Assembly (NCBI GenBank): GCA_051294905.1 | Contig: CM119371.1 | Coordinates: 3,908,001 to 3,972,000 of the forward strand | DNA from: Botryllus schlosseri | Lineage: Eukaryota | Length of the DNA: 64,000 nucleotides | Direction: 5' to 3' | Shown here: one piece after another, positions 5,047-34,616 of the stretch | How the letters are laid out: the number at the start of each line of letters is the position of its first letter | Numbering within the stretch: the first letter of the stretch is position 1 | Program-made: the position numbers and the translations under genes | Notes under the pieces: model-generated | The model's input: the letters and a program-made list of their open reading frames with translations, nothing else | Databases searched by the model: none | Told to the model about the DNA's origin: nothing

Positions 5047-5897
5047 CAGGGGCGGGCAACTTCTCCAGTCGGCGGGACGGATATAGGAAAATTAAGTACT
5101 TGGCGGGCCGGATTGCTAAATCGATACATTATTCGCCCATTTATCCACATATACAAGGAATAAATCGTATTTATTGAATGATTTTACCGACAGTAATGTC
5201 ACTTAAAAGCCCTTTCTCGCCGATAATGACGAAGACAATGTGGATTTCAGAATAGCATTGCTATACAGGCCACGCCATGTCTGGTTCTATATCTGATCAA
5301 TCAACACACGGTGAAATCCTTAATTAAAATTTCAAGGCGTTCGATAAGTTCGGTAACCCAAATTTACCAAGATATAAATTCACTAGGGTTGACGTTTGAG
5401 TAGTTGACGAGATAGCGTCGTTGTTCAACTATGTGGCCTGATTAATCCCGATATTGAATTCATGTGACCCGCGTCCTCTACGAAATTTGAAAAGTGGCCC
5501 GCGAACCGTTTTGAGTGGGCGACCCTGGTATAAGCGGTGTATTACAAAAGCCTAGAAGTGTGCCGTGCTATACAAGTCGCCGGTTACGGAATGAAAAATA
5601 AGAAATATCGGCCTGGTGTAAATGACCATTGTAGTCGACAAACACCACATACGACATTAGGGTTGAGTATACAGCGTAGATGCCGATAGTGAAAGTCTTC
5701 TCGCTTCGACGAACTTACACGTAGCCTATACTCCACTCTCGCACGCTGCGCATACACGTATATAATAACATACAGTCACTAGTAAGCAAGTAGTGGAAAG
5801 TCTCGGCAGACTGGGGCCGCGCGCCACATTATCATGTAAGACGGAAAACTGTCCGCGGGGCGGATCCGGCCCATGGGCTGTATGTTGCCCGCCCCTG
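5047..5897. mobile_element. hAT (Buster/Charlie-type) MITE
   Basis: TIRs CAGGGGCGGGCAAC / GTTGCCCGCCCCTG. TSD GTTTATGT/GTTTATGC. Confidence 0.8.
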
Positions 5898-6596
5898 GTT
5901 TATGCGACGAGTAAATTTCCACACAACCTTACTAACATCAAGATAACGGCTCATAGTCAAGTATAAATTGCAATGAGTTCAACATTGCTTAGCGCAGTGC
6001 TCTTCAACCGGGGTTGTCGTACACCCTAGCGGCCTAGGGTGTACCAGAATTTGCAAAGGGTGTACCACTCGGATGGGGGGTACAGGGGTGTACCAGATCC
6101 GAATTACAATGAGCCGATGGCTAGCTATCACAAAGACATGTTGTTGGGTCAGTACAGGTTGACGCACAGGTTAATGAGCAATATGGTACGATTTATCTCA
6201 AGTGTAATGCATTCTATAGCAGGGGTGGGCAAACCACGGCCCGCGGGCCGAATGCGGCCCGCAACACCGTTCTGTGCGGCCCGCGAGAGTCTAAAATAAA
6301 TTTTAAAAAATATTGATAAAATTCGTACTTTAAAAAGTCGAATTATAATGCAGGTACTTGATTTTCTTCGTATATGTCACCATGATAAATCTAAGGCAGT
6401 GGTTCTCAAACTGGGATCGCGCCCCCTTGGGAGCGTAAAAGCATCTGAAGGGTGGCGCGGAGCTGAGCTCAACTGATTTTTTTCCATGCCATCAAACTAT
6501 CCGTTACGTTAGTAGTATGATGGGCTGGCTTTGTGCCCCGCCAATCCCAGAAGGCCACGTCATCCTAATTGCCACGCCCATTTTCATCCCCTAAGG

Positions 6597-7318
6597 CAGG
6601 GTCGGCCAACCCGTGGCCCGCGGGCCACATGTGGCCCGCGATAAAGTTTTGAGTGGCCCGCGAGGTAATTTCCGAAATTTCTAATATCAAAAATGGATTG
6701 CACAGATTGTGAACTTGCAAGGTCAACCAAAAATTTGATTAGTTTGACCGCAACACTTGAGATGTGATGACTAAAATATCAGTTCCGACGCATTGACAGA
6801 TCCATCAGCCAGTCACATATTGGTATATCTTCGTACACTACAATAAAGCAGAATAATTTGCGATAGATTTATCAGAAGTAAAAATTTTCTGCAAGTTTAG
6901 TGCAACATGTTGTCACTCGATTCCTTGTTTTTAATATTGTTGCCGTTTTTGTGAAAATGGAAGAACGCCTGATGTATCAGATTGAGTCTAACTATATTCG
7001 CGAATACGGGACAAAGTGTCGTTCAACATATGCGACCTTGCGTTTCCGCTCGCAGTAAGATCGTTGACTATGAAACCTAGGCACGGAAAGATTGACGCAT
7101 GTTGGTCGCAGCTTTCGATATCGATATTTCCATGCGCCCAATAGCCCATTCCTCGCAAACTTAGCCCAGCGATATACGGCAGGCTCGCAATATAGTCAAG
7201 TGACAATATTATTGACCTATGAACTTGAAAAAAATTTCGCGCTTCGCGCGGTAAGTGGCCCGCGCAATATTTCGTCAATCGAATGTGGCCCTTTGGCTGA
7301 AAAGGTTGGCCGGACCTG
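6597..7318. mobile_element. hAT MITE inserted in the left arm of the foldback
   Basis: TIRs CAGGGTCGGCCAACC / GGTTGGCCGGACCTG. Perfect TSD CCCTAAGG (6589-6596, 7319-7326). Confidence 0.85.
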
Positions 7319-9957
7319 CCCTAAGGGAACATTCATCTGCTACGTCATCTGTGCCACATCATCAAGCGTCACGCCTATAGTGCCACATCATCCATCCATT
7401 GCTATATCATCGCTGCATTGATTGCCGCATCTTGATACTTTTCTCAGATATTGTATTATGTGTATTTAGGACTAATATCATCCGTCCATATTTTTTAAAC
7501 TTGATTTTATGTGTACAAGTTACGGTTTCTGCAGTTTCCACATTTTACAACTTATGATTGCTGCGTCAAAACTTACCTTGGCTAGAATCGACAGATTTTC
7601 TATTATGTGTATTTAGTTAGGACTATGTATTTAAATTCCTATTCAGATTATACATAAATGCGAAAACTATGATGTCTATGTAAGGTTATATTCTCCGGAT
7701 AATATTATTAATATCAAAATTCTACACATCATCACTAATTACTTAATATAAAATGCGATTTTGAGCGCTGCGACTTGATAATATGAACCCCTACGCTTCT
7801 GATGCATGATTTTTTGTGATAAGGACCTAGGTAACATTCAGAGTCTGCAACGATTGTTTGGATATACATTATAGCAATACCCCACTAAACTATAGGCGGT
7901 TATATTACTCTATTGGTCAAAGATAACTCATCCGTCCATATTTTTAAACTTGATTTTATGTATACAAGTTACTGTCTCTGCAGCCTCCACATTTTACGAC
8001 TTATTTTCATTAGACGCAGGCAAGCGATTCTCCAGTTCGGAGCTACGGAAACAAATCACTCGCATGTGCGTGTTCCGAATAGTCTTGTAGAATTTTCTAA
8101 AGTCGTAACAGCTTAGTAGCATATACGCGAATCCCAAGGTGAAAATAATCGAACGAACTATAGCCGTAGGCGTGCGATTCGCAGGGCTTTATTTATACAA
8201 ACTCTATCGATGCCTGTACGCGAACCCCAGCGTTAAAACGATTAGGTCTAATTAACACGTTCTGAAGCCGAAAATTTAGTCAACATCATTGAGATAGCCA
8301 TGATTTGAAGATGGTGATCGAGTGTGACAATAGCACTCGCCAAGGTTGGACAAACATAACCTTAAACTACTCTCTACTTCACAAAATATAAAGTTATAAA
8401 AGTAAGCAGATTTCTATGAAAACCCGTGAAATAGAAGTAAAAGTAGCCGAGAAACATAACTACTTAATGAAAAATCGTGATTCTTGAAGTGACCACATTT
8501 CATACGATTCAGTCCTTTTCATGTCACTAGAATAAGGTGATTAAACGGACAGTGAAACGCCGCCGGCGTCTTATCACGTAATAATGTAAGCTGCGTCGGG
8601 TGCTGCTATAATGTTAGGAGCGAATATAGTAGAAAGTTCACGTCTGGACACCTGTAAGCAGGTGCGCATACTACCGTAGTAAAACGCATAACAGAATTCA
8701 CGCAAAAGTCGATGTTGCTTTGTGATGCTTTTGATGTTGTTCCATACCGATTGGGAAGATAGGACTCCTAATTTCCTAACTAACTACATAATCCCTAGTA
8801 ACGTAGTCAGACGCATAACAGAATTTACGCAAAATCGGTATTGCTCTGCGATAATTTTGACCACTATGTTTTGATAATAACTTGCTTCCGAGAAATAAAT
8901 AACATTCATTATACGTTAGATGATACTTTTCCTTGATATTCTATTATGTGTATTTAGTGCTAATGCGACATCACTATATTGGCGACAGGCCTGATTTGAA
9001 CACACTAATTTTGCGAATTAAACTTATCGCCCATCACGGACACTCAATGAAGAGCACCCCGGAGACCCGCATAAATGCTCCACAATTCTCGACATATAAT
9101 ATACTGAGCATATAATAAGCTAACAAAACCTATACTTGAGTACTCCGAAATGTACAAGTACTTTAACTTTACACGACGTTTTTGTAAAATGAATACTAAT
9201 TTTAATGGAAAATAAAAATTATGTACTCAAGTAGGTTTTTGTCTACACGCACCAACTACTCAAGTGTTTATGACACAGGAATGATTCATTAAGTATACCG
9301 CAAGAAGGCCAAACCTATACTTGAGTACTCTAAAATGTACAAGTACTTCGCTATGTACTCCCTCCACGTAAAAAGTATCTAGGTTTTAGACTACTTTATC
9401 GATTTTCGATGTTGCGCAAATACCACAAACTTTGCCTTCTTTCAGAGCTGGCAACTAAATGCAAGACAGACTTTACGCAAAAGTCTCTATTCTGAAAATT
9501 TTATCAAGTTAATACATTAAAAACTTATACTTGAGCACTACGAAATGTACAAGTACTTTATCTTTACACGACGTTTTTTGTAAAATGAATACTAATTTTA
9601 TTGAAAAAATAAAAAATAAAAAAGAGAGAAAAATTACATTTTATCCCGGAACGCAAAAAGAAAAATCGTATGAATTTGTAAACTACTTATTCATGACATA
9701 GTAATAATTCTACTTGTACACTTTTTCACATTTTATAACACTTTAAGTAGTACTTAACAGTTTCAGTTTTAAATAAAATGCGGAATATAAACTAATCGAA
9801 AAATTCGGTAACCAATTGCGCGTAGGCTATGCATACAAATGAGGAACGTTACATCAACGCGCGTTAACTAGTTGTATCGAGTTATCGAATGATTTTTTCC
9901 TTACATCAAAACAACTAGAACGTGAAACTACATTAAAAACGTATCTAAATGAGCTCC

Positions 9958-10978
9958 AGGGCATTGTGATTATGCAGCATACCAAATTTCATCAACCATT
10001 TCATGATGGAACAACTTTAAAACTAACGCAGTTCTATAGCAACTTTTGCCTAAATCTGTTTTCGGTAGCGTATACATATACATAGTCAGCTTTAATAACA
10101 GAATTACCAAGCTAATATGTGACTCCTCACCTTGCAACTTGGTACGTAGTTGTAGGACATTGTGATTATGTAGCATACCAAATTTCCTCACGCATTTCAT
10201 AATGGAACAACTTTAAAACTAACGCGGCTCTACATCGACTTTTTGCGTACATCTGTTTTGCGGGAGCGTATAGAACGTACCTATACATAGTCAACTTTAA
10301 TAACGGAATTACCATGCTTAACATTGAATACCAACTCTAAACTTGATACGTAGTTGTAGGACATTATGGCAATGCACCATGCTAAATTTCATCACACATC
10401 TAATGATGGAACACCTTTGAAACTATCGCAGTCGAATATCGACTTTTACGCATATCTGTTTTTCGTGAACATAGCATATACAGATACATAGTCAATTTTA
10501 GTAACAGAATTAGCATGTTAAACATTAAATTCTCACCTTGAACGTTGGTACGCAGTTGTAGGACATATAACAATGCACCATACCAAATTTCGTCAGGCAT
10601 TCCATGATGTAACACCTTTAAAACCAACGCAGTTCTATACAGACTTTTAGCTAAATCTGTTTTTCCGTAGCGTAGCACGTACCTATACATAGTCAACTTT
10701 AATAACGGAATTACCGTATTAATAATCGACTCCCCACCTTGAAACTCGGTACGCAGTTGTAAGACATTATGACAATGCACCATGTCTAATTTTGTTACGC
10801 ATTTCATGATTGAACAACTTTTAAACTAACGCAGTTCCATACCGACCTTTGCGGGAGCGTAGCACGTACCTATGCATACTCAACTTTAATAACGGAATTA
10901 CCGAGCTAAACATTGAATGCGCAACTTGAAGATTGGTTCACAGGTGTAGGACATTATGACAATGGAACATATCAAATA
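9958..10978. repeat. ~200-bp tandem repeat array, about 5 diverged units (left arm)
   Basis: GTAGGACAT-type anchor recurs at ~9958, 10152, 10356, 10558, 10759 and 10946. Confidence 0.85.
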
Positions 10979-12225
10979 CCGTGTTTCCATGAAAATAACA
11001 AGACATTACACATCCAGTATACTTCCAATCGACATCGCGCTGGTTGATGCGGCGCTGTGCACCATATAGATGCGGCAATCAATGCGGTGATGATGTGGCA
11101 ATGGATGATGTGGCACTATAGGCGTGGCACTTGATGATGTGGCGCAGATGATGTGGCAATGGGTGTGCTATAGGTGCGGCAATGGGTGGATGATGTGGCA
11201 AGGGGGCGTCCTATAGGTGCGACAGAAAAACACACATATTTGACCGTAACATGGTCTTAGTATGAACCGACATGCATTCGACTTGTGGAAAAATGTGTCG
11301 CACACTATTTCACCGAGATTACAACCCTTTCACGGATATTCGTTGGTGCTATCGATACGGTGAACAGCACGTTATGTATAGCGATATCTCCACAGTCAAA
11401 TACGCGAACCATGCACAACCATATACCCCGACTTTCGTTGAATATTCACGACACCAACAAATCTGTACATCTCCTTTCCCTCGACATCAATGATAGAATC
11501 CTCATCCCAATGCGCAGTACGAATGGTGGGTTTATCGGGTGTAAAATCCAAATCAAATGACACCAAGGTCTGCTTTCTCATTTTCAATATTTCCACCACC
11601 GCATCTTGTCTGTGTCTTAGCACTACCGTGGGAGGATGGCGAAATCTGTGGGTGGTAACACGGATTGACATGATATTCTTCGATATGATCAACTGAAACC
11701 ACGGATGTGGTGGGTTAGAGTCTTGTCGTGATGGTCCGTTTCGAAATGCAAGCGGATGAACTAGACCAAAAGTTTCGAAGATGCGTTTTATAATTGCTCT
11801 AGGTGTGAAATAGACATCGCACTCTTGCGGGGAAACAACACGAATTCAGTCTTCACACCGCAGAAACACAGCCGCTTGGTTAACATCACAAAACCGCAAT
11901 TGAACTCAAGATTGCCATACACGGAATCGCTGTTAACGATGTCTGACTGCGGCGTTTCGACGAGTAACGAATTCTCGTATTTAGTATTTATTGTGACACA
12001 TAGTCAAAACAGCGACAGTTTTCACAACCCGGTACATACATTGAACCAACTGATGTAAGGTGAAACACTACGTTCACACCAAAAAAAGTTTGCAGGGTAT
12101 GACCACCACCAACATATAGAGTATTATTATTATTGATGAAAAGATGAGTGACGCTTTTCGCCTGTAAGGCCAGGTGCGTCACGGACTAGAATGAGCGATT
12201 TACCAAAATATGGTCAATAACCGAT

Positions 12226-15200
12226 TTACAAGTAAGTACCACAAGATATAACAAATTCTGCAACATGGGATAACATTTCGGGGATGATCAGTAGATTTTC
12301 GAGTGTTGCAGTAATTTTGAGCTCGCGTGCCCTGTCGATTAAAAATTCCGATGAAAATCATATCGATTGCAGTGCAGCAAAAAATGCTCGACTGTATCAG
12401 GTACTGTACAATGGTCGCATAGGTCGGTGTCGCTACATCCAATTTTATATAAATGCGCTTTCAGGCGGCAATGGCCTGAACGAAGCCGAAATATTATTCG
12501 TTCGTAAAGCCTATGTCGATGCATCGATGGAAAGTGGCCATCAGTCAATGATCTATGGAAATTTCGATAGTGACCTCCACGCTCATTTCGTTGATATTCG
12601 GCGTTCCAGGTCGCTCTACAGTATTGACGTACTTCGGCTTTCGCCTCAGCGTGGCTAATTTTTTCTGGAAGCGTCTGAGAAGGGGTATTTTCGATATTGG
12701 TCCTGGCAGCTTGCCAAGCCAATTTATCAGCTAATTCATTACCACCGATATCAGCATGCCCCGGTACCCAGGCCAGGACAACAATGGCGCCTTTCTGAAC
12801 CACTTGATTCAGCAAGCGACCACATTCAAATATAACATTCTGCGTTTGCGGTGCCTGCAGGTTGGTCATAGCGGATAGCACGCTCAGACTGTCCGATAGA
12901 ATCAGATATGTTTGTTGGTATGAGCCATTCTGGCAGATCCATTTTAGAGCGTGGAGAATGGCTTGTGCTTCTATGGAGAAGATTGACTTAAGAGTGGAAC
13001 ATGACTGGGAAAAGTTTATCATCAGCGACGGGATGGTAAATGCAAAACCGGCTCCCTCTGCTGATTTGGAGCCGTCAGTGTATATTTCAGTGGCATCCCT
13101 ATATCGTTCGAATATGAAGTCCAGGACTATGGGTTTATGCGACAGAGGTGCGATATCTTTTTTAATGATTTTTGCAAGGTCTAAATCAATATTAGGTGAT
13201 TGAATCAGCCATGGAGGCAAATTTGGAAGACTTTTTCTTTCCAAGGCAAGGTTATTCAGAGACTCGACATTGGTGGCGATGTTGAAGGTAATGAATTTTG
13301 GGTTCATGAGGCTATATATCTCCTGCCAAGAGTCTTCAAGCACTCCTAATGTTGGATGTTCGTGAGCCTGGTAACCTCTAAGGTGACAGCGATAGTTAAG
13401 GCTAAGCTGTTTGTGGCGCAGATGGAGAGGAAGCTCGTCACATGATGCTTCAAGTGCACAAATGGGGGTGCTGCGCATTGCTCCACAGCAGAGGCGGAGA
13501 GCTTGATTTCGTATGGTGCGTAACTTGTCCAGATACTTTTTTGGGGCGAAGTAATATGCTGGTAACCCATAGTCAATCAGTGATCGTATCAGCGCCCTGA
13601 AAAGTTGCAGCAATGGTCTTTTACTCGCTCCCCATGTGGTACCAGTCACGACTCTGATTAGATTCAGTCTGTTGGAGCACTTTTTGGAAATCGTATCGAT
13701 ATGTTGCTTATAGTTAAGCAATTTGTCAAACGTGATACCCAAATATTTGTAGGTGTCGACAAATTCAAGTTCATGGTCACCAGTTTTCAAGATAAGTGGA
13801 GGAATTTTCCTTTTCTTCGTGAACAGCATGCCTACGGTCTTTGCCTTGCTGATGGTAAACCCCCATCTGGAACACCAGTCGCTTATTACATCGAGTGATG
13901 ATTGAATGGAAGACAAGAGGGGCTGGATAAGAAGACCGCTATCCCAAACAGCGCAGTCATCTGCGAACACCGCATGTTCAGACCGATGACCTAACGAGCT
14001 CGGTAAATCATTGATCATTACCGCAAACAGCAAGGGGCTGAGAACGCTTCCCTGTGGTATACCGTTCTGCAGTACATAACTGTCGGAAAGAGTGTTTCCT
14101 ACGGTCACCTGGAAAGTTCTGTCAGAAAGGAAATTTGTAATCCATCGGTGCATGTGTCCGCGTATACCGAGCTGGTATAGTTTGTACAGAAGTGCGTGGC
14201 GCCACACCATATCGTAGGCTCGACTTATGTCTAAGAAGACCGCTACCACCGATCGCTGGTGATGGATATTCTTGTAAATCGCGTCGTGGAGACGCAGTAT
14301 GTGGTCCAGGGTGCTTCGACCACGCCGGAAGCCGGACTGTGAGGGATGTATCAGATTTTTTGACTCCAAATCCCATCTTAATCGATTGGTGACCATTACT
14401 TCCATGACTTTACAAATGTGACTCGTGAGAGATATAGGACGGTACGATTCCACAGAGGTAGGATCTTTGCCCTTTTTGGCAATTGGGCAGACTATGGCAT
14501 GTTTCCACGAGACTGGCAATTTCCCCGTCTCCCAGGATGCATTGTATAGTTTCAAAAGATCGGTGCGACCGGAGGATGATAGATTTTTTAACATCGAATA
14601 CCCTATGGAGTCCTCCCCGGGTGAAGTTGATTTTCGGCTACGCAAAGCTTGATTCAGTTCGGCAAGAGTGAATTCGATGTTTATGATCGAATTCCTGTGC
14701 CGATCTGGTTCGTTGTCAGCGGTAAGATGAACCGTGTTTTCAAAGTTAGCCTTCGTTATACGAAATCCTGCTGGGTAGTTGTCGGAGCTGCTCGTTTTTG
14801 CGAAGTGTGAAGCCAGTGTATTAGCTTTGGTTCTGTTATTTTGAGAAATAGACCCGTTCGACTTCAGCGTTGGTATGGAATTGAACGTATGCACTCCCGA
14901 CATAGATTTCATAACGTGCCAGACTTTCGCCATCTGCGTACGGGAGTCCAATGTACCACAAAAATCCTCCCAACATTTGCGTTTAGCAGAAAGGATGGTT
15001 TTTCGACATTCGGCTCTCATGCGTTTGAAGGCGATCACGTCTCGAATGTGAAACGTACGTTTCATTTTCAAGTAAGCAGCCCTTTTCCCGCGCACAGCAC
15101 GGGTACATCCCACGTTCCACCAAGGTACGGCTATTTTCGTTGATATTTTCGGTCGTGGGATCGACTCTCCCGCCGCTAAAAGTAGGCTATTTGTGAAATG

Positions 15201-15994
15201 GCGGTGAAGGTCTTCAGTTTCCCCCATAGGAACGAAGTTGGATTGGAGGTGGAAATCCGCAGCAGCCGAGAAGGCTGACCAGTTCGCCTTACTGTAATCC
15301 CATGTACGTTTTGATGAATTGCACGACGCCCTATTATTGTATGTGGTCTGGACTACAACGTGATCACTACCGATGAGCTGGTCCGTTACTGTTGTGGCAC
15401 ATCTCGCCGCAATGTCCCGAGACGACATCGACAGATCAAGAAGTGACCAGCGATGGACGGCATCACACGCAATATTCATACGAGTGGGTGACGATGAATT
15501 CAACAGGACAAGGTCGTTTCTATCCATTATTTCGCAGAGTTGGTTGCCACGTGCATTTGTCGAGTGGCTCCATGAAGAATGGTGCGCATTGAAGTCGCCG
15601 CATATAATGGAGCGTGATGACAAAGAGCCGAATATCCTAAAATCACTAGCTGTAGTTTCACAGTCCGGGGGTATGTAAACGTTGCATATGTTCAAGTTCC
15701 CTACTCGCACACATAGTACCTCAAAAACGGCTGACGAGACATTGTTCGAAAGAGACGCATTGAGCGATGCTCGAACAAAAGTGGCAATACCGCCAGAGTG
15801 CACCGTCTTATCACGGCGGAATAGTTGGTACCCCCTAGTTTTGGTGTGTACTTTTGGACAAGATGGGATTCTTGAATAAGAATAACGTCTGGTTGAATGG
15901 TTAAGGTTGACAAGTAGTGCTTAAATTCGTGTAGCTTGCGATAGATGCCCCTGCAGTTCCACTGTAAAATGACTAAAGAGTTGTGATTATCCAT
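12226..15994 (-). CDS. LINE ORF2: APE endonuclease, reverse transcriptase, RNase H and C-terminal CCHC (two 1-nt frameshifts)
   Basis: APE motifs QWNCRG, IQESHL, GDFNAH, SDH. RT motifs YRPISL, FLDISRAYD, GIPQGSVLSP, FADD. RNase H motifs YTDGSK, SDS, WVPGH..GNE.AD. CX2C..H..C at the end. The frame shifts at the C5 run 15831-15835 and the A5 run 12341-12345. Confidence 0.93.
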
Positions 15995-17405
15995 TTAAAG
16001 TGCCATTTGACGTCTGGGAGGGAGTGTCTTCGGTCTCACCAAAGCTTTTTGTGACATTTTTCAGAGAGACTGGGTCAACAGAAAATCCCAAATATTTGCT
16101 GGCAGCTTTGGCTACAATAGTATGTAGAACGGTACCACTGTCGCTAGATTTGCAAGCATTTACAGTTATCTTAACGATTTCAGCAATGAGCGCAAGGAGG
16201 ACTACGGGGTCAATAGAAGCAAGCCCGCTTGATGCGGTTTCGACTGTGGGGTTGGCAGCAGTTCGAGCAGGTGGTGGTTGTCGCCAGTGGCGCAGGTCAC
16301 CGTCGTTGGGCTGTGGGGTGGTAGGCCTGTAACTCCGACCACGGGTTAGTACATTCTTATAACTAAGCCGCTGCGGGTATGGCTTTGAGATCCTGTGTAC
16401 GTCAAGTCTGTTGGGGGCAGGATCATCTACGATTACCGACTCATGGTACTCGGACACGGTCTCGGGAGTTTCCTTGGGTTGTGGTTGTGGTTGTGTGAGG
16501 GACATATGATATCCCTCTCTAAGAGCATTAAATTTGGCTTCTTCCTTGTATATGATGCAACCACCATATGCAGCGCTGCGTTCCTCGTTGCAATTTACAC
16601 ATTTTTTGTTGTTTGGACAGTCGTCATACGTGTGATCACGGCCACCGCATTTGGAGCAGCAACGTTTTCCGCGGCAGTGCTTGGCGACATGCCCAAAGCG
16701 ATTGCATTGGAAGCATCTCGTTGGCGGTGGATTATATTGTCTCGTTTTAAAACGAAGATAGTGGAACATCACGTGCGGTGGAATCGTGACCGTGCTGAAA
16801 GACAGCAGAACTGCAGTTGTACTAACAGTGCCATCTTTCGTTTTTTTGGTGAGCCTTTTAACATGAATTACATTCATGCTGCGAAAACTCTCTAAGAGCT
16901 CCTGTTCCGATATTTCGACAGGTACTCCAGGAATAACTGCGCGACTTGCGTATGGTCTGGGTTGAAAGATTGATGTCTTAATTTTAATGGTTGTCGATGC
17001 GGACTTCAAAATGGTGCAATCAAGGAGCTGCTTTGCTTGCTTTTCGTTGTTACAAGTGATAAGGATGTCACCCGAGCGAAGAACCTTGATATCAGCATAG
17101 CTGCCTATTGACGCATAAAGTGCCTTATTAACCAAGTCTGGATGATACGATTTCATTAGTCTACCCTCTCCACTGAGCAAAACCTTGAGATTTCCCGAGA
17201 CAGGGATGGAAGACGGTACGGCAGAAGATACTTGCGAAGGAGATGTTACTTTAGGACAAGGATCTGGATTGTTAGGCGTAGTTGCATAGTCTCTAGCTAT
17301 AACCTTAGCGCCATTTCCATTTTCATCGGAGTCACTCTCAGCTTCCTTAACGCTACACTTCTTGCGCTTCATACGACTAGACGTTTCTGCGTCCATGTTC
17401 TCCAT
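15987..17405 (-). CDS. LINE ORF1, gag-like nucleic-acid-binding protein (472 aa)
   Basis: Zinc knuckles CFQCNRFGHVAKHC, CSKCGGRDHTYDDC and a degenerate CVNCNEERSAAYGGC. Overlaps the ORF2 start by 8 nt. Confidence 0.92.
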   Translation of the reverse strand: MENMDAETSSRMKRKKCSVKEAESDSDENGNGAKVIARDYATTPNNPDPCPKVTSPSQVSSAVPSSIPVSGNLKVLLSGEGRLMKSYHPDLVNKALYASIGSYADIKVLRSGDILITCNNEKQAKQLLDCTILKSASTTIKIKTSIFQPRPYASRAVIPGVPVEISEQELLESFRSMNVIHVKRLTKKTKDGTVSTTAVLLSFSTVTIPPHVMFHYLRFKTRQYNPPPTRCFQCNRFGHVAKHCRGKRCCSKCGGRDHTYDDCPNNKKCVNCNEERSAAYGGCIIYKEEAKFNALREGYHMSLTQPQPQPKETPETVSEYHESVIVDDPAPNRLDVHRISKPYPQRLSYKNVLTRGRSYRPTTPQPNDGDLRHWRQPPPARTAANPTVETASSGLASIDPVVLLALIAEIVKITVNACKSSDSGTVLHTIVAKAASKYLGFSVDPVSLKNVTKSFGETEDTPSQTSNGTLNG

Positions 17406-20400: not shown

Positions 20401-20653
20401 AATGTACAAGTACTTCGCTATGTTCTCCCTCCACGTAAAAAGTGACTAGGTTTTAGACTACTTTATCGGTACTCGACAGTTTCAGTTTTAGATAAAATTT
20501 GGTAAGACTTTAAATTTTAAAGTAGTTTGAGCTTACGTTTGTATCACCTTGACAAGTAACATTATCAGACATGAAAATGATACTATCACCTAATATAGAA
20601 GTTAACACGCGTCAATGTGCTTCGGAATTCACGAGAAATTGCTTACTAAGAGA

Positions 20654-20905
20654 AGTATATTCTTGTATACACAATAGTGAAGAGAATCTTTAAAATGTAG
20701 TAAGCAGGCCGATGGGTATTCGTTTAGTTGTATAGGCATAAAAAACATTCCCGCGCGCCTTAGTATTAGGTGGTAGGGTTAGGAAGTGTTTTGTTTAAGA
20801 GCGCGCGGGAATGTTTTTTATGCCTATACAACTAAACGAATACCCATCGGCCTGCTTACTACATTTTAAAGATTCTCTTCACTATTGTGTATACAAGAAT
20901 ATACT
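20654..20905. repeat. Centre of the palindrome: 105-bp perfect stem plus 42-nt loop
   Basis: 20654-20758 is the reverse complement of 20801-20905. The loop is 20759-20800. Confidence 0.92.
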
Positions 20906-22272
20906 AATTTGCGAACTCTCACTGCGCAATATTTGAGTTTTACGAAGTAACCTTCAAAGTGAGCCTACATCTTGGATGTTATCCAAAACCACATACAATT
21001 TCGCTTCGAACGAGGTATCCTTTAAAATAAGGTAGAAGTAGTCATTTCCGAGTAAGTAAAACGTTAGTACTCTAGGTATATTACTGTTTAATACTCTAGC
21101 TATCATGAAGTTGATGTACTCCAATATCATAAGGACTTGAGACTATGTGGTGCATCTAGGCAAAAAACCTACTTGGGTATTCTCAAGAAGTACGAGTGCT
21201 CAAGTATAAGTTTTCAAACCATTACCTTGACAAAATTTTCAGAATAGCAACTTTTGCGTAAATTCTGTCTTGCATTTAGTTGCCGGCTCTGAAAGCAAGA
21301 AAAGTTTGTGGTATTTGCGCAACATCGAAATTTGTACACTTCACGCGGGGCCTACGATACTTATCGCCTAATATGGCACACTACACTTGCTGGATATAAG
21401 AGGCCGACACTCCCAATCAAACATCACGACTGACTCAATGATTGCTTGCGATCTCACTTCTCGATACCAGACGCCTCGCCATACAAGTCTAATAAAGTAT
21501 TATAACAGACAAAATTAGTTCTTTCAGATGAAACAACCCAATTAAGAGCCAAGTGACAGCGTCGCAATGTATTTAATCACCAACACACAAGAAGACAATG
21601 TAACGAGGATCCCCAACTTGGGCATGTAAAAGTATTTTACAGTATGGTAAAACGAATTCAAGCACGTGAAAATGAAATTCATTCATTTGGAACTACTCTG
21701 AAACACACACGTGGAGCTTGGTCATAGAAGTTCTGCAAGTGAAATGAATTACTGCAGTAAGCAAACTACGTCTTGCTCAACTGCCGCTTTTTAAAGTCCT
21801 TCACAGCATCTTTTCTCATATAAACGGACAACCGGTTTCAGAGTATACCCGCGTCGATCGCATCGCATCTATATCAACGGTTAACCACATAAAATAACAA
21901 TATGCTCTTGTATATCGAAATGTATGCTTTGGAAATCGACGGATATTGTGTGTCCTGGTGTGTGTGTCTGTGTGTGTCCCGGTTCGTGCTTTAGCCTCCC
22001 ACAGAGTCAATATGTTGAAATTAGCAACCTCCATGACTTTGGTAACTGCTTGGTACACGGATAATGGTTGAATTTATGTCCCCGTCGCGCTAACAAATCC
22101 GGGTTACTTGTAAGTTTTCTCACACATGTTTACTATATTGTGTCACTCTTTATTGGTCAATACATATCCCACCGTTCAGTTTGAAATCGGAAACCCGAGA
22201 AAGTATTAACCGGATCCGGATATCAACTCTGAATCGACAAACCAATGAACAATATTCAAACATGTTACACCC

Positions 22273-23866
22273 CCGTGTTTCCATGAAAATAACAAGACAT
22301 TACACATCCAGTATACTTCACGATTGTTCATAGATAGCAAGTATTCGCGTAAAGGAGGTGTGTGACATTACATACATCATGGATAACATCATGGCCGGCA
22401 CTACAAGCATCATGGATTACAAATTCATGTTCTGAAGTCTCATACATGCACCGACTCTGTACATTCAATGTGGGGGTAGCTGACTTGGAGACAGAAAAAC
22501 ACACATATTTGACCGTAACATGGTCTTAGTATGAACCGACATGCATTCGACTTGTGGAAAAATGTGTCGCACACTATTTCACCGAGATTACAACCCTTTC
22601 ACGGTTCACAACTTGATATATCAACTTCACAGGGTAGTTCGGATTCTCAGGTAGACTTGAATCGTGATCCGGATCTCGGAATATAGTAAAATCGGGGTAT
22701 GTAGTTTAATTACTCACTCACTACTCTATATGTTGGTGGTGGTCATACCCTGCAAACTTTTTTTGGTGTGAACGTAGTGTTTCACCTTACATCAGTTGGT
22801 TCAATGTATGTACCGGGTTGTGAAAACTGTCGCTGTTTTGACTATGTGTCACAATAAATACTAAATACGAGAATTCGTTACTCGTCGAAACGCCGCAGTC
22901 AGACATCGTTAACAGCGATTCCGTGTATGGCAATCTTGAGTTCAATTGCGGTTTTGTGATGTTAACCAAGCGGCTGTGTTTCTGCGGTGTGAAGACTGAA
23001 TTCGTGTTGTTTCCCCGCAAGAGTGCGATGTCTATTTCACACCTAGAGCAATTATAAAACGCATCTTCGAAACTTTTGGTCTAGTTCATCCGCTTGCATT
23101 TCGAAACGGACCATCACGACAAGACTCTAACCCACCACATCCGTGGTTTCAGTTGATCATATCGAAGAATATCATGTCAATCCGTGTTACCACCCACAGA
23201 TTTCGCCATCCTCCCACGGTAGTGCTAAGACACAGACAAGATGCGGTGGTGGAAATATTGAAAATGAGAAAGCAGACCTTGGTGTCATTTGATTTGGATT
23301 TTACACCCGATAAACCCACCATTCGTACTGCGCATTGGGATGAGGATTCTATCATTGATGTCGAGGGAAAGGAGATGTACAGATTTGTTGGTGTCGTGAA
23401 TATTCAACGAAAGTCGGGGTATATGGTTGTGCATGGTTCGCGTATTTGACTGTGGAGATATCGCTATACATAACGTGCTGTTCACCGTATCGATAGCACC
23501 AACGAATATCCGTGAAAGGGTTGTAATCTCGGTGAAATAGTGTGCGACACATTTTTCCACAAGTCGAATGCATGTCGGTTCATACTAAGACCATGTTACG
23601 GTCAAATATGTGTGTTTTTCTGTCGCACCTATAGGACGCCCCCTTGCCACATCATCCACCCATTGCCGCACCTATAGCACACCCATTGCCACATCATCTG
23701 CGCCACATCATCAAGTGCCACGCCTATAGTGCCACATCATCCATTGCCACATCATCACCGCATTGATTGCCGCATCTATATGGTGCACAGCGCCGCATCA
23801 ACCAGCGCGATGTCGATTGGAAGTATACTGGATGTGTAATGTCTTGTTATTTTCATGGAAACACGG
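22273..23866. repeat. Internal cassette bounded by nested 47-bp and 115-bp inverted repeats (intact right-arm copy)
   Basis: 47-bp IR at 22273-22319 / 23820-23866. 115-bp IR at 22490-22604 / 23510-23624. Confidence 0.88.
23153..23449 (+). pseudogene. Possible remnant ORF of unknown function in the cassette (mirror copy 11396-11692, minus strand)
   Basis: 98-aa ORF with protein-like composition. The frame stays open about 50 codons further upstream. No recognisable motif. Confidence 0.3.
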
Positions 23867-24887
23867 TATTTGATATGTTCCATTGTCATAATGTCCTACA
23901 CCTGTGAACCAATCTTCAAGTTGCGCATTCAATGTTTAGCTCGGTAATTCCGTTATTAAAGTTGAGTATGCATAGGTACGTGCTACGCTCCCGCAAAGGT
24001 CGGTATGGAACTGCGTTAGTTTAAAAGTTGTTCAATCATGAAATGCGTAACAAAATTAGACATGGTGCATTGTCATAATGTCTTACAACTGCGTACCGAG
24101 TTTCAAGGTGGGGAGTCGATTATTAATACGGTAATTCCGTTATTAAAGTTGACTATGTATAGGTACGTGCTACGCTACGGAAAAACAGATTTAGCTAAAA
24201 GTCTGTATAGAACTGCGTTGGTTTTAAAGGTGTTACATCATGGAATGCCTGACGAAATTTGGTATGGTGCATTGTTATATGTCCTACAACTGCGTACCAA
24301 CGTTCAAGGTGAGAATTTAATGTTTAACATGCTAATTCTGTTACTAAAATTGACTATGTATCGGTATATGCTATGTTCACGAAAAACAGATATGCGTAAA
24401 AGTCGATATTCGACTGCGATAGTTTCAAAGGTGTTCCATCATTAGATGTGTGATGAAATTTAGCATGGTGCATTGCCATAATGTCCTACAACTACGTATC
24501 AAGTTTAGAGTTGGTATTCAATGTTAAGCATGGTAATTCCGTTATTAAAGTTGACTATGTATAGGTACGTTCTATACGCTCCCGCAAAACAGATGTACGC
24601 AAAAAGTCGATGTAGAGCCGCGTTAGTTTTAAAGTTGTTCCATTATGAAATGCGTGAGGAAATTTGGTATGCTACATAATCACAATGTCCTACAACTACG
24701 TACCAAGTTGCAAGGTGAGGAGTCACATATTAGCTTGGTAATTCTGTTATTAAAGCTGACTATGTATATGTATACGCTACCGAAAACAGATTTAGGCAAA
24801 AGTTGCTATAGAACTGCGTTAGTTTTAAAGTTGTTCCATCATGAAATGGTTGATGAAATTTGGTATGCTGCATAATCACAATGCCCT
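23867..24887. repeat. ~200-bp tandem repeat array (right-arm mirror)
   Basis: Reverse complement of 9958-10978. Confidence 0.85.
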
Positions 24888-27522
24888 GGAGCTCATTTAG
24901 ATACGTTTTTAATGTAGTTTCACGTTCTAGTTGTTTTGATGTAAGGAAAAAATCATTCGATAACTCGATACAACTAGTTAACGCGCGTTGATGTAACGTT
25001 CCTCATTTGTATGCATAGCCTACGCGCAATTGGTTACCGAATTTTTCGATTAGTTTATATTCCGCATTTTATTTAAAACTGAAACTGTTAAGTACTACTT
25101 AAAGTGTTATAAAATGTGAAAAAGTGTACAAGTAGAATTATTACTATGTCATGAATAAGTAGTTTACAAATTCATACGATTTTTCTTTTTGCGTTCCGGG
25201 ATAAAATGTAATTTTTCTCTCTTTTTTATTTTTTATTTTTTCAATAAAATTAGTATTCATTTTACAAAAAACGTAGTGTAAAGATAAAGTACTTGTACAT
25301 TTCGTAGTGCTCAAGTATAAGTTTTTAATGTATTAACTTGATAAAATTTTCAGAATAGAGACTTTTGCGTAAAGTCTGTCTTGCATTTAGTTGCCAGCTC
25401 TGAAAGAAGGCAAAGTTTGTGGTATTTGCGCAACATCGAAAATCGATAAAGTAGTCTAAAACCTAGATACTTTTTACGTGGAGGGAGTACATAACGAAGT
25501 ACTTGTACATTTTAGAGTACTCAAGTATAGGTTTGGCCTTCTTGCGGTATACTTAATGAATCATTCCTGTGTCATAAACACTTGAGTAGTTGGTGCGTGT
25601 AGACAAAAACCTACTTGAGTACATAATTTTTATTTTCCATTAAAATTAGTATTCATTTTACAAAAACGTCGTGTAAAGTTAAAGTACTTGTACATTTCGG
25701 AGTACTCAAGTATAGGTTTTGTTAGCTTATTATATGCTCAGTATATTATATGTCGAGAATTGTGGAGCATTTATGCGGGTCTCCGGGGTGCTCTTCCTTG
25801 AGTGTCCGTGTTGGGCGATAAGTTTAATTCGCAAAATTAGTGTGTTCAAATCAGGCCTGTCGCCAATATAGTGATGTCGCATTAGCCCTAAATACACATA
25901 ATAGAATATCAAAGAAAAGTATCATCTAACGTATAATGAATGTTATTTATTTCTCGGAAGCAAGTTATTATCAAAACATAGTGGTCAAAATTATCGCAGA
26001 GCAATACCGATTTTGCGTAAATTCTGTTATGCGTCTGACTACGTTACTAGGGATTATGTAGTTAGTTAGGAAATTAGGAGTCCTATCTTCCCAATCGGTA
26101 TGGAACAACATCAAAAGCATCACAAAGCAACATCGACTTTTGCGTGAATTCCGTTATGCGTTTTACTACGGTAGTATGCGCACCTGCTTACAGGTGTCCA
26201 GACGTGAACTTTCTACTATATTCGCTCCTAACATTATAGCAGCACCCGACGCAGCTTACATTATTACGTTATAAGACGCCGGCGGCGTTTCACTGTCAGT
26301 TTAATCACCTTATTCTAGTGACATGAAAAGGACTGAATCGTATGAAATGTGGTCACTTCAAGAATCACGATTTTTCATTAAGTAGTTATGTTTCTCGGCT
26401 ACTTTTACTTCTATTTCACGGGTTTTCATAGAAATCTGCTTACTTTTATAACTTTATATTTTGTGAAGTAGAGAGTAGTTTAAGGTTATGTTTGTCTAAC
26501 CTTGGCGAGTGCTATTGTCACACTCGATCACCATCTTCAAATCATGGCTATCTCAATGATGTTGACTAAATTTTCGGCTTCAGAACGTGTTAATTAGACC
26601 TAATCGTTTTAACGCTGGGGTTCGCGTACAGGCATCGATAGAGTTTGTATAAATAAAGCCCTGCGAATCGCACGCCTACGGCTATAGTTCGTTCGATTAT
26701 TTTCACCTTGGGATTCGCGTATATGCTACTAAGCTGTTACGACTTTAGAAAATTCTACAAGACTATTCGGAACACGCACATGCGAGTGATTTGTTTCCGT
26801 AGCTCCGAACTGGAGAATCGCTTGCCTGCGTCTAATGAAAATAAGTCGTAAAATGTGGAGGCTGCAGAGACAGTAACTTGTATACATAAAATCAAGTTTA
26901 AAAATATGGACGGATGAGTTATCTCTGACCAATAGAGTAATATAACCGCCTATAGTTTAGTGGGGTATTGCTATAATGTATATCCAAACAATCGTTGCAG
27001 ACACTGAATGTTACCTAGGTCCTTATCACAAAAAATCATGCATCAGAAGCGTAGGGGTTCATATTATCAAGTCGCAGCGCTCAAAATCGCATTTTATATT
27101 AAGTAGTTAGTGATGATGTGTAGAATTTTGATATTAATAATATTATCCGGAGAATATAACCTTACATAGACATCATAGTTTTCGCATTTATGTATAATCT
27201 GAATAGGAATTTAAATACATAGTCCTAAATACACATAATAGAAAATCTGTCGATTCTAGCCAAGGTAAGTTTTGACGCAGCAATCATAAGTCGTAAAATG
27301 TGGAAACTGCAGAAACCGTAACTTGTACACATAAAATCAAGTTTAAAAAATATGGACGGATGATATTAGTCCTAAATACACATAATACAATATCTGAGAA
27401 AAGTATCAAGATGCGGCAATCAATGCAGCGATGATATAGCAATGGATGGATGATGTGGCACTATAGGCGTGACGCTTGATGATGTGGCACAGATGACGTA
27501 GCAGATGAATGTTCCCTTAGGG

Positions 27523-29035
27523 CAGTGGTTCCCAACCTTTTTCATCTCGTGCCTCCCTTGGCCGAAATTTGAGCCAAAATTCCCCCTTATGAGAAATCTG
27601 CCCGATGATTAAAAAAGGTCAGATTTTACCACCCAATCTCCCGTTGACCGAAGAATAGGACGGGCGGTACAGAGTGTTTGTTTCTAGCAGGGCTTTAACA
27701 ACGCTTTGTAGACCTCCAAAAACCATGGTCTTGGTCCCAATCAAACAAATTCTGGAAGGCTTGACTCAACAGACCCCCAAAATTCCATTTGTGTTTTCGG
27801 CTGATCATGCACCAATCGCTAATATAACTGCTGTTAAAAATCAGTATGCATAAATTTATTGGTCTCGCGATCTTTTCTCAAGTTTGCGTATGCATTTGGT
27901 CAATAATATTGGTACTTTCATTTATAGCAGGATTGACCACACTCGAGTCGGACTCGAGTCTGATGACTCTACTTGACTCGAGTCATTTTCTCAAAATAGG
28001 GAGACGACTCGACTCGAGACAATCTGTGTATTTACTCGACTTGGAGTCATTGTACATGACTCGAACCAAAACATATGACTATAAGACAGTCAAGGCCGAC
28101 ATTTCATTGTAATTTCGAAGAACAGTAAAATAGCCTTCCTGTTGGAATTTCGTCTATTGGTCCAGGTACTTGAAACTGCGACAATAAACTGCTCGAAGTG
28201 AGGAAAATTAGTATATTATAAATCAAAATCATTCGATATCACCAAACAGAGTTATAAAATTTGAGTTTAACAAGACTTCAACTGGAAACTGAGCAGTCAA
28301 CACAATGAATTGGATTCGGACTGGAGTCATAAGACCATGACTCGGGCTCGACCCTATGCTCGGTGACTTGGACCGTCGGACTTGACTCGAGTCAAACTAT
28401 AAAGTGAGATTGACTTGCGACTCGGAGCCTCGTGACTTGGTTACAGCCCTGATATATAACATGCCCGTGATCAGATTTCCTGTTTGAGCTCATTGAAATT
28501 TAGGACACTCATTCTGTTTCGGCAACATTGCAACAACTTTAACATGCATTTTTTCGATCGAGTAGCTGTCCACTAAAAATAGAGCAAGGCTAGCGATCTT
28601 TTTGACTTGAATCGATGACGTTGGAATATCTTGTCACTTTATGAAAATGTGGACTTCAAAATATAAGATAAGTACTTTCGTTAGGTGCCTTGTTGTGATA
28701 GCTTCGGCACGACATTTGCTCGCTTAGAATATATTTGATTGAGAGGTCGTCGCTGGCATACAAAATTGTCTTGCGAACTGCAGCACATGTGAACTAGTTT
28801 TAAAAAACCAAGGGGGAGCTTGTATGTGAGAAAGAGATTTCAAATAGCATTTGAACATACTTCAGAAAAAAACAGCTATAAAGAGCATACGTTCTGATAT
28901 AACTGGTTGACTACATGGCATCAGTTCGGACATGAACAATTTGGGAAATCCGTTACAACTCTAAAGTGGAATTCCTCCCTAAAAATTACAAAATTCCCCC
29001 CAAGGGGGGAATTCCTCCCCGGTTGGGAACCACTG
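27523..29035. mobile_element. hAT non-autonomous element inserted in the right arm of the foldback
   Basis: Perfect TIRs CAGTGGTTCCCAACC / GGTTGGGAACCACTG. Perfect TSD CCTTAGGG (27515-27522, 29036-29043). Confidence 0.9.
27928..28451. mobile_element. GACTCGAGTC-rich hAT-like MITE nested in 27523-29035
   Basis: CAGG...CCCTG ends and many GACTC/GAGTC motifs. Colinear with 53979-54488. Confidence 0.75.
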
Positions 29036-31731
29036 CCTTAGGGGATGAAAATGGGCGTGGCAATTAGGATGACGTGGCCTTCTGGGATTGGCGGGGCACA
29101 AAGCCAGCCCATCATACTACTCACGTTTGCTAGCATTCTGATTGCGTTTTGTGATAGGACGATAGGGGGCGCAAAATCTTTCACCATCATAGGGGGGGGG
29201 GGGGCGTGTCTTAAAAAGTTTGAGAACCACTGTTCTAAGGTAAATACTTCTTATATTATTTTTTTATGTTTTACTTTCTGTCGCGACAGCCCGATCTCAA
29301 GGCCCATGCAGCTGGAGAGGTTTCAATTGCGCTAAACATCACAGAAATCCTGAACGAAATTGACATAATTAGGAACACGAGTGTTGGCCCAACCAGTTTT
29401 AATTATTTCAGTGATGTGCTTATAAAAACGATTCGCGCGTGCCTTAGGTAGATTCGTTCTCTGTATGAGTAGTTTTAGGGCAATTATATTTGATCTACAC
29501 ATAGTAGAATCGTGTTTGAAGCTAACATGGTTATGATGCTGTCGGCATTGTGTGTTCTGGACCTGAACCAAAATTGGAACTAGTAAATCTATGAACAGAA
29601 TCGGGACAATCGACATTCATCTCTATAGTTCTGGCAAATTGATTATTGAGGTCGACCAGTCCTGCCACTGTTTCTGTCGCGTGTACGATATCGTCAAAGC
29701 AACGTTTGGTTTGTTTTAAAAAAGCATATATATTATCTCCATGTCCTCACTATATAATGAAATACCGTTATTCTGTTTTGGTTTATAATCCCAATTTTAT
29801 ATAGTGTGGCCCGCGAATGGATTCTGATGTTGAATGCGGCCCGCGAGCTCAAAAGTTTGCCCACCCCTGTTCTATAGTAATACTGTTCACCGCTTGCTTG
29901 TGATGTCATAAGCAAATATTTCTCCTATTCATTTAGCCGTCGGCAATTGACCAATGGTTCCGTTTGGTGTTGTAAAGTATGCAGTTAGCAAACATGTGTT
30001 CAGCTAGTCATTTGTCTTTTAGTGATATTCGATGAAACCGCCGCGATAGCTCAGACTTCTTGAATCGGAACTTCCTACCCGACGTTAATAAATACCGCAA
30101 TGCACATAAATGAAGTGACGTAGCCAGCCAGGGTCGAAGCAGCTTCCATGTTGGAATCGAAACCCTTTTGTTTTAAAATGCTGATTTTATGTCCAAGGTT
30201 ATTGTCTGAGGTTACTGACATCTCTTGCAGCCCATGTGCTACTATCGACTGTGTGTGGTGTGGGACAGGCCGGATACGCAGTAGGCTGGTGCGCCTGCTA
30301 TCATCGCTGATCTGAATTACCGCTTCTGCAGCAGTAGCTTTGCCTACTCTCTCCCCAATACTTTCACATTTAGGTTGATTATCGTTCGTCACGTCATGCT
30401 ATTTTGGGGCTGACACGAAATAAATTCCAATTTGCGTGGCGGACGGCCTAACTGGCTGCGAATAGACTCTGTGGCCAAATACTATTTTATTCAAATCCAA
30501 ATTTTTGACGGCAATAATAACTCCGCTTCTACTAGTTGGAATTGAACCAAATTTGAAGAACATCATTTTTATAGAAAACCTAATACTTTCATGGGTGAAC
30601 TTATTTTTATATTATAGAATAGAAACTTTCTTCTTCCTGTAGCAATGTGGCTAGTGGTTGGAATTGAACCAAATTTTGTGTGTAGGCTTAAGTTACGTAA
30701 CCTAACAATGTTATCAAGTAGCCAGTACGATTTGAGGAAAAAATTATATTTGAAGACCCCTAATGAACAGGGGTGTAAGAGTTCTGACCAAACGTTAAAA
30801 GGGTGTACCGCGTCGAAAAGGGTTGAAGAGCACTGGCTTAGCATATAATTCCCCGCAAATTTGTGCATTAAGTGAAGGAATGTATGAAGACCTATCACAT
30901 CACGGCATAATAGTACTCGCCAGTTTGCTTGTATCAATGCTATAATAACCAATATAGAATCTATAGAAGTCCATGTGCAATATGTGTATTCTTTTGAATT
31001 AGTTGGATGGTTGGAGCAGAGGCAGGCTAGCTACCTTTAAATTTTCGTCGTAAGTAGCCTATATACTCGAGTGTTTTCATACGACTCCATTCGTACTCCA
31101 AAGTTTGATATGCGGTCCCGACATCCTAAAAGGTTGGGAACCACAGGTTTTGACGATTCCAATATATATATATAATATATTTCCGCTATAGGCTACCAAC
31201 GATACTGATGGGAGGTCAAGAAATAATAGCATGCAACGAAGCATGCTTTCGTCGTAACGGTCTAGCCAAGACCGGACAATGCACTCCCATGTCGTCAGAC
31301 TATTGCTACTTTAGCATTGATCAGAGTAATATCCGGTTTCTATACTGGCTGCAGAATTGCCTCGAAACAATTTGTACAGTAGCAAACAAGACAATCAGGC
31401 GTATTTGGATTTTATGATACAATATATAAATGATGAAGGTTCTCAGTGGAGAACCTACCGAGGCTCTTTTGTGTACGCGAACCTCCAAATTCCTGAGGTT
31501 CACACACTGAACTCGAACGTGAACCTTACGGTCACACCATCCCTAGTCGCTATCTCGGCATTTTTTTACAATAATTGCGATTCAGATATATTACACATAT
31601 TTCCATAATATATGTCCTAGTTTATAGACTTCGACGAGTGATCATAATGCAACCTATGGTTTCTAATTATGTTCTAGCATTTTACCTGACTGTTTACTTT
31701 TAACAGTTTCACCTAAAGAACAGGCGGTGTA

Positions 31732-34322: not shown

Positions 34323-34608
34323 CAGTGGTTCTCAAACTGGGGGGCGCAAAGCTGCAGCCAGTCAACTGAAATATTCCCTTTGCGCTCTGTGCAATTCATC
34401 TCCATTTCATTATTATTGCTCTGTGTATAGTCCGAATTTCATATCTGAGAATTTTCTCATCGACAGTCATAACCTTCCATGCCATAAAATTATTCGTTGG
34501 GATTGGTATCATTCTGGTTACATTCTGTGATATGACGATAAGAGGGACGAGCGCAAATGCTTCACTATCATGAAGGGGCGTGTGTCTAAAAAAGTTTGAG
34601 AACCAATG
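34323..34608. mobile_element. hAT MITE
   Basis: TIRs CAGTGGTTCTCAAAC / GTTTGAGAACCAATG. TSD TTCTAGAC/TTCTAAAC. Confidence 0.8.
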
Positions 34609-34616
34609 TTCTAAAC

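Follow-up and report, generated by a model that had tools for sequence, protein, structure and literature searches.

Two different hAT elements at the same octamer in both arms of a palindromic element of Botryllus schlosseri

Why would two different hAT elements lie at the same base of both arms of one palindrome? We analysed a stretch of 64,000 bp of the Botryllus schlosseri genome (GCA_051294905.1, contig CM119371.1, positions 3,908,001 to 3,972,000), hereafter the window, in which one octamer was duplicated by two Buster-type hATs of 722 bp (insert A) and 1513 bp (insert B), one per arm, at 78 bp from each terminus of the palindrome. A preliminary description had read this as a strong hotspot beside an origin, itself presumed from the Maverick-type end motif, due to an accessible end or to targeting of the element's termini, on the premise that each arm offers many equivalent nnnTAnnn sites. 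The premise fails, since the octamer with its flanks ranks first among the 6,684 arm positions under a profile of target preference trained on other sites of the window. The hotspot itself is real, but an accessible end or a targeted terminus is not needed as its cause, because the profile that ranks the octamer first is blind to position.

The palindrome and its two inserts

The host of both inserts is a gene-less palindromic element (6511-29121) whose arms of ~6.7 kb show 32 differences in 6,701 compared bases (99.5% identity) and surround a non-palindromic spacer of 1,480 bp (19426-20905). As far as the accessible text of PMC8097293 describes Maverick/Polinton elements, it resembles them in its (AGT)2//(ACT)2 termini (AGTAGT//ACTACT) and its long inverted repeats; the two copies of a putative 6-bp target duplication agree at 5/6 positions (TACGTT at 6505-6510, CACGTT at 29122-29127). 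Unlike them, it has none of the core genes (pPolB, integrase, ATPase, protease, capsids) in its arms or centre, and the arms make up ~90% of its length once insertions are removed. The arms and centre contain no ATG-started ORF of at least 150 aa, and none of the five arm ORFs tested matched Pfam. Judged by its sequence, the palindrome would be at most a non-autonomous Maverick/Polinton derivative. Its exact end motifs had no match in public viral contigs; two matches in metagenome contigs (another metagenome search gave none) stop after 19-20 bases and were discarded as chance. The terminal 78 bp (6511-6588, mirrored at 29044-29121) hold what we take to be one CCAAT, one TGACG half-site, one GC-box-like and one NFI-like motif.

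The locus is a nest of insertions. The palindrome splits a hAT MITE (6397-29232, forward strand, TSD ATCTAAGG/TTCTAAGG, ~220 bp when empty), the halves of which are collinear with an uninterrupted relative at 34323-34608. The distance from the ends of the split MITE to the two target sites is 192 and 189 bp. This host MITE is enclosed by a second hAT (6220-29869, forward strand, TIR 15/15, TSD TTCTATAG, 8/8) and by an outermost one (5995-30835, forward strand, TIR 15/15, TSD GCTTAGCG/GCTTAGCA). The left arm alone carries a LINE (12124-17594, reverse strand) with a TAA-repeat tail and a 13-bp TSD (12111-12123 and 17595-17607). It encodes an ORF1 of 472 aa and an ORF2 that is interrupted by one frame break close to its start and contains domains for endonuclease, RT and RNase H; ORF2 was the sole Pfam match among the 11 ORFs searched.

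The same-site pair is confirmed and base-exact. On the left, the octamer CCCTAAGG is the outer TSD copy of insert A (6589-6596, forward strand; inner copy at 7319-7326); on the right, its reverse complement CCTTAGGG, as read on the forward strand, is the inner TSD copy of insert B (27515-27522; outer copy at 29036-29043). Both TSD pairs agree at 8/8 positions, the terminal 86-bp stretches of the two arms show no differences, and the coordinates bear out the preliminary description of two different hATs on one octamer at equal distance from each end. In homologous sequence, different elements have used precisely the same position, as at known parallel insertion sites.

Insert A (6597-7318, forward strand) has TIRs CAGGGTCGGCCAACC / CAGGTCCGGCCAACC that match at 12/15 positions, with the GC-rich end facing the terminus; insert B (27523-29035, reverse strand) has a perfect 15-bp TIR (15/15), CAGTGGTTCCCAACC, with the G-rich end facing the terminus. 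Their orientation within the arm is identical, and their TIRs agree with each other at 10/15 and 9/15 bases. When A and B were aligned, no global similarity was found, and the best local match was a single AT-rich patch of 20 bp with score 30, which was equalled or exceeded by 4/36 and 3/79 unrelated tiles of the window and by 9/300 Markov shuffles. They are internally unrelated, which rules out a common origin; hence, as the preliminary description had it, there were two insertions and not one. Both are non-autonomous: none of three insert ORFs (two of them from A) matched Pfam and no coding capacity was found. They have the 8-bp TSD with TA at positions 4-5 of Buster-type elements and short TIRs that begin with YARNG (CAGGG and CAGTG), a start described for anole hAT-HT families in the available part of PMC3014272. 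Since no transposase was found and autonomous partners are absent from the window, their placement among Buster elements follows from ends and TSD.

The left end of insert A is similar to hATs at 6220 and 56361, and the window holds no second full copy of A. Elements sharing the TIR of insert B occupy unrelated sites at 45162 and 51983, which argues against this TIR group being specific to the Maverick-type end. Insert B also contains an older repeat (27928-28451) with degenerate ends and flanking octamers alike at 6/8 positions, a relative of which, 75% identical, lies at 54041-54500. Since it is more decayed than the arms, it probably arrived as cargo of insert B.

A target profile from the rest of the window

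The target profile was trained on only 17 other Buster-type sites of the window, 10 with both TSD copies and seven single ends that had been picked for a central TA. These sites favour TA at TSD positions 4-5, pyrimidines at 2-3, purines at 6-7 and G or C at 1 and 8, with T or C at -2 and A or T at -3 mirrored on the right. The shared octamer, which stands between ATC and GAA, carries a favoured base at nearly every position of site and flanks. Five training sets were used, some of which left out the host MITE or the entire local nest, and in all five the octamer ranked first with flanks of either three or five bases; with two bases it ranked first in three sets and second in two. The flank width was fixed after the first results had been seen, though it agrees with the accessible text of PMC2836564. 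The TSD without flanks places the octamer at rank 3-11, with a same-site probability of just 0.4-0.8%. Over 500 bootstraps it ranked first in 76% and among the top five in 96%, and first in 0.4% of 500 control profiles built from random TA sites. Of the 63,881 positions of the window a single one, at 36390, scores higher, and it is empty of insertion.

The profile also performs on sites left out of training. In leave-one-out tests, 10 sites held out in turn had a median position in the top 3% of TA sites, the best scaling of the profile is 0.9-1.0, and the gain over a TA-only model is 18.6 nats, so that the TA-only model was rejected as too weak. The window contains a second re-used octamer (34609-34616, forward strand), a TSD copy of the MITE at 34323-34608 into which a different hAT (34617-36043) inserted. 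As an internal control, a model whose training left out the 34323 site places this octamer in the top 3.0% of 3,010 TA sites. Published motifs, as given in the available text of their sources, single out the octamer to different degrees. NYYTARRN (PMC3014272) combined with A or T at -3, -2, +2 and +3 (PMC2836564) matches the octamer and only two other arm sites; this strict combination fits only 2/10 training sites. The octamer does not fit the published motif NHCTAGRN, and the strict form NTCTAGAN, of which the arm has no site, was set aside.

How probable is the pair under each model? Two insertions would share a site with a probability of 0.0017 (0.17%) under TA only and of 0.068 (~7%) under the fitted profile (0.016-0.15 for scalings of 0.7-1.2). 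The profile gives the octamer a probability of 0.23 per insertion, and both inserts fall at this very octamer with a probability of ~5% (0.8-13%). The pair is thus more than chance under the TA-only model and moderately unlikely under the fitted profile, and the sequence model must be supplemented by luck or some other factor for both inserts to be at the octamer.

Proposed history and its alternatives

We think it likely that two hATs inserted independently, by cut-and-paste, into two copies of a target that is by its own sequence close to ideal. The palindrome would have entered the small hAT MITE while its arms were still free of insertions, an order suggested by the nested TSDs and the near-identical arms. 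Buster-type transposases of this genome favour a graded palindromic target, and the octamer, the best site of the arm, is offered twice by the palindrome, once in each arm. It would then have served two different non-autonomous hAT families once each, either when the palindrome had already integrated or following the last copying from arm end to arm end, because otherwise the same insert would be found in both arms. The nearness of the octamer to the terminus would be incidental. The double use is most likely explained by the octamer and its neighbours being the best hAT landing sequence of the arm, a known and ordinary kind of effect that calls for no particular attraction of hATs to the Maverick end.

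One might speculate instead that a Maverick-type end, open or bound by a factor, draws hAT transposase, the best site in the open stretch being used. The four promoter- or origin-like motifs of the terminal 78 bp are rarer further in, a descriptive observation, and the ~5% left by the sequence model gives some room for such an effect; TcBuster slightly prefers DNase I sites and transcription starts, according to the accessible part of PMC3499496. But the motif counts are single occurrences within a GC-richer stretch, the LINE inserted ~4.9 kb from the end, and the position-blind model already puts the octamer first. We regard this effect as unlikely. No more probable in our view is its stronger form, in which open chromatin at an origin or an end-binding factor would attract Buster transposases to such palindrome ends more than the target sequence accounts for, and the octamer would be a conserved landing pad for several hAT families, which would let hATs ride on or disable the virus-like element. 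Among the matches listed in a literature search, no title or opening of an abstract reported a hAT hotspot in Maverick ends, subscription papers being outside its scope.

A comparably improbable account invokes nearby hAT ends: transposase bound at the older ends of the host MITE, or a local tolerance of insertions, would raise the rate at this locus only. It draws on the short distance of the host MITE ends from the target sites, on the four-deep nest around the palindrome, and on 7/11 other paired Buster elements lying within 250 bp of another Buster end where 2.6 were expected (P 0.006, a value that is too small because the test is post hoc, its 250-bp cut-off was set by eye and two neighbouring pairs are counted twice). 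Selection can also produce clustering, TcBuster is described as lacking affinity for related transposon fossils (PMC3499496, available text), and the choice of the exact octamer is left unexplained.

Two further accounts fare worse. One insertion might have been copied to the other arm and then swapped in one arm for a different hAT through break repair, as the common site and in-arm orientation and the apparent exchange between arms (1 difference in a stretch of 2,699 bp where ~13 are expected, scan P 1e-4) could suggest, but this is very improbable and nearly refuted, as the inserts are not homologous internally and share just 9-10 of 15 TIR bases that could prime repair, there is no chimeric end or footprint, all four TSD copies are perfect and a shared orientation has a prior of 50%; no title or start of an abstract among the matches listed, subscription papers aside, reported hAT replacement by gap repair. 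Equally hard to credit is a mosaic, by ectopic conversion or in the assembly, of arm ends from family copies or haplotypes bearing A and B, to which the mismatch in the palindrome's TSD would point, but three enclosing hATs with matching TSDs and the collinear halves of the host MITE place both flanks at one locus, and the octamer would still have to be hit twice.

hAT hotspots inside repeats

Sequence-driven hAT hotspots inside repeats are already known: human MER1/Charlie-type hATs share hotspots inside MIR3, with the same flank signal (Levy et al., PMC2836564, accessible text). In both cases different hATs recur at identical places within a target repeat, and the window data alone recovered what is described there: TA at TSD positions 4-5 and, in the flanks, an AT-rich motif at -3/-2 and +2/+3. 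The MIR3 hotspot was counted over many copies, whereas here the two arms of one palindrome provide the case. In carrot, Stowaway MITEs have 292 parallel insertion sites (1.6%), and there too different MITE families occupy precisely one position; those elements are Tc1/mariner with a TA target, however, and their sites are alleles of one locus across plants (PMC6881990, available part). A and B share with the Buster family, as described in the accessible text of PMC3499496, PMC3517528 and PMC3014272, the 8-bp TSD with a central TA, the short CAG(G/T)G TIRs and the non-autonomous copies, and the octamer fits the NYYTARRN consensus of anole hAT-HT. They differ from it in being placed by ends and TSD, no transposase having been found, and in an octamer that falls outside NTCTAGAN.

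The nnnTAnnn target given for Buster hATs (the Mar MITE in PMC3517528 and TcBuster in PMC3499496, available text) thus much understates hAT target choice, of which the graded preference over 14 bp is a tidy example: learnt from one window of 64 kb, it picks the doubly used site out of 6,684 positions. Shared insertion sites in repeats are hence proof neither of common descent nor of targeting. A large family of such palindromes would be a natural replicate experiment, in which the influence of sequence on hAT target choice could be told apart from that of chromatin. A residual terminal effect, if true, would connect transposons that move by cut-and-paste with a virus-like element's replication ends.

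Two insertions in a palindromic host

The host of both insertions is a palindrome that starts with AGTAGT at 6511 and finishes with ACTACT at 29121, with arms of about 6.7 kb each around a central spacer of 1,480 bp. It resembles Mavericks in its (AGT)2//(ACT)2 ends, a motif described for these elements in PMC8097293, and differs from them in being devoid of core genes, none of which was found when we looked for them in the palindrome. The arms differ at 32 of the 6,701 bases compared, and their terminal 86 bases are identical. The 6-bp duplication flanking the palindrome (6505-6510 and 29122-29127) has one mismatch, at its first base, despite an arm divergence of only 0.5%.

The palindrome interrupts a small hAT MITE (6397-29232) at its middle; this MITE is contained in a second hAT (6220-29869), itself contained in a third (5995-30835). 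All three retain their pair of target site duplications (TSDs), hence both flanks of the palindrome are one locus. The region 5995-30835 is a five-level nest of three hATs, the Maverick-ended palindrome and, within it, two hATs and a LINE. Another hAT (5047-5897) stops 98 bp outside it. The 5.5-kb LINE (12124-17594, minus strand) interrupts the left arm only and is near-intact, with an RNase H domain, a TAA-repeat tail, a 13-bp TSD and one frame break close to the start of ORF2. Its site is flanked by a 115-bp segment found twice per arm, inverted, at 99-100% identity (11221-11335, 17725-17839, 22490-22604 and 23510-23624). Each arm also carries a tandem array (9958-10977; 23868-24887) of five units that are diverged and about 200 bp long, and the right edge of the spacer (20654-20905) holds a perfect inverted repeat of 105 bp around a 42-bp loop. 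Elsewhere in the window are three paralogous arrays of 84-bp period (31700-33800, with a 554-bp near-identical duplication, 41760-43050 and 54870-56310), whose period and codons are as would be expected of C2H2 zinc-finger genes.

Both inserts are non-autonomous Buster-type hATs. Insert A (6597-7318; 722 bp), in the left arm, is flanked by two copies of CCCTAAGG, and insert B (27523-29035; 1513 bp), in the right arm, by two copies of CCTTAGGG, the reverse complement of the insert A octamer. This octamer begins 79 bases inside the palindrome at both ends, and both inserts point the same way within their arms. Their terminal inverted repeats have 9-10 of 15 bases in common. We sought internal similarity by local alignment and found none beyond a 20-bp AT-rich patch, the best match (its score was reached in 4 of 36 and 3 of 79 tiles of unrelated sequence, as well as in 9 of 300 shuffles). 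Given this lack of internal similarity and the four perfect TSD copies, A and B are two separate insertions. The preliminary description, which had placed two unrelated elements of these lengths at the same octamer, was exact in its coordinates. A subterminal stretch (7338-7432) recurs in inverted form at 11068-11158 (86% identity); this copy lacks the target octamer.

A target profile for Buster-type elements

The other Buster-type insertions of the window, comprising 10 elements with two TSD copies each and 7 single ends carrying a central TA, served to build a symmetrised target profile; inserts A and B were kept out of training throughout. We omitted four paired elements lacking a central TA (3405, 39395, 57167, 61475) and the element 34617-36043, whose site is also that of 34323-34608. 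A further six single ends of doubtful status (35058, 47514, 56780, 49310, 49572, 46833) were omitted and then restored as a sensitivity test; four weak matches (8341, 40953, 40649, 17434) entered no training set. Beyond the TA, the profile has a pyrimidine at TSD positions 2-3, a purine at 6-7 and G/C at 1 and 8. Its left flank favours T or C at -2, then A or T at position -3 (24 of 27 symmetrised counts), and its right flank is the mirror image. Human hATs have the same signal, reported in PMC2836564 to be AT-rich at -3/-2 and +2/+3. Logos and supplements of the papers cited here could refine the profile. In leave-one-out tests, held-out sites ranked at a median within the top 3% of TA sites. 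The profile did best at a scaling of 0.9-1.0, where it gained 18.6 nats over a TA-only model, in which all nnnTAnnn positions are equal. These tests show that the profile is predictive.

The right arm contains 585 nnnTAnnn sites, taken as equivalent in the preliminary description. This equivalence fails: in a training set that is small, and with a flank width selected after a first look at the data, 3-bp flanks place the shared site first of 6,684 right-arm positions in all five training sets, two of which left out the host MITE and the local nest, respectively. It also ranks first in all five with 5-bp flanks, first or second with 2-bp flanks, and 3 to 11 on the TSD alone. It came first in 76% and among the top 5 in 96% of 500 bootstraps, and first in 0.4% of profiles from random TA sites. 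Among 63,881 positions in the window, a single one outscores it, and no insertion occupies that position.

In the calibrated model, the shared site takes 23% of Buster insertions per arm. The probability of a same-site pair is then 6.8% (1.6-15% over scalings 0.7-1.2), and 0.17% under the TA-only model. About three quarters of same-site events are expected on the shared octamer; if each arm receives one Buster insertion, both land there with a probability of roughly 5%.

Published motifs and re-used sites

The shared site and two others in the arm match a motif derived from published work alone (NYYTARRN, the consensus in Table 1 of PMC3014272, plus A/T at four flank positions). The shared site fits neither NTCTAGAN nor NHCTAGRN, and the strict combined motif fits only 2 of 10 training sites; the preference is therefore graded. 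The window contains a second re-used octamer, where a hAT (34617-36043) lies inside a TSD copy of a neighbouring MITE (34323-34608). Its entry left three copies of the octamer, and the decayed MITE end provides the favoured bases at -3 and -2. Similar cases appear in two papers: different hATs re-used one repeat position in MIR3 (MER1 elements; PMC2836564), and 1.6% of carrot insertion sites are common to different MITE families (PMC6881990). Among the papers listed in our literature search, none had a title or opening of its abstract that reported hAT hotspots in Maverick ends.

Position, history and parallel insertion

The palindrome end might itself attract hATs. Its first 78 bp contain one each of what we take to be CCAAT, TGACG, GC-box-like and NFI-like motifs, and Hermes reportedly targets nucleosome-free DNA. 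Open chromatin is weakly favoured by TcBuster, according to PMC3499496. The hotspot proposed in the preliminary description stands, as the best-ranked target in the arm; targeting of termini is not needed as its cause, and we consider such an effect unlikely. Equally doubtful is the split host MITE as a second positional factor, one absent from the preliminary description. Both sites lie about 190 bp from its ends. Of the 11 other paired Buster elements, 7 have another Buster end no more than 250 bp away, where 2.6 would be expected; this count was made post hoc and includes two pairs twice. Yet TcBuster shows no affinity for related fossils in PMC3499496.

Arm differences are patchy: a tract surrounding the LINE insertion point (9571-12123 plus 17608-17754 versus 22575-25274) holds a single difference over 2,699 bp, while the sequence to its left and right differs by 0.6-0.9% (scan P 1e-4). 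This pattern suggests arm-to-arm conversion or a conserved stretch. The arms thus seem to exchange sequence, but replacement of one hAT by another at the shared site is very improbable, as A and B show no homology, chimeric ends or footprints. Since the arms carry different inserts, both would postdate the integration of the palindrome or the last copying of its arm ends. The same-site pair is best read as sequence-driven parallel insertion, revealed by a palindromic host. It is a real finding, and a fresh example of an already known phenomenon.
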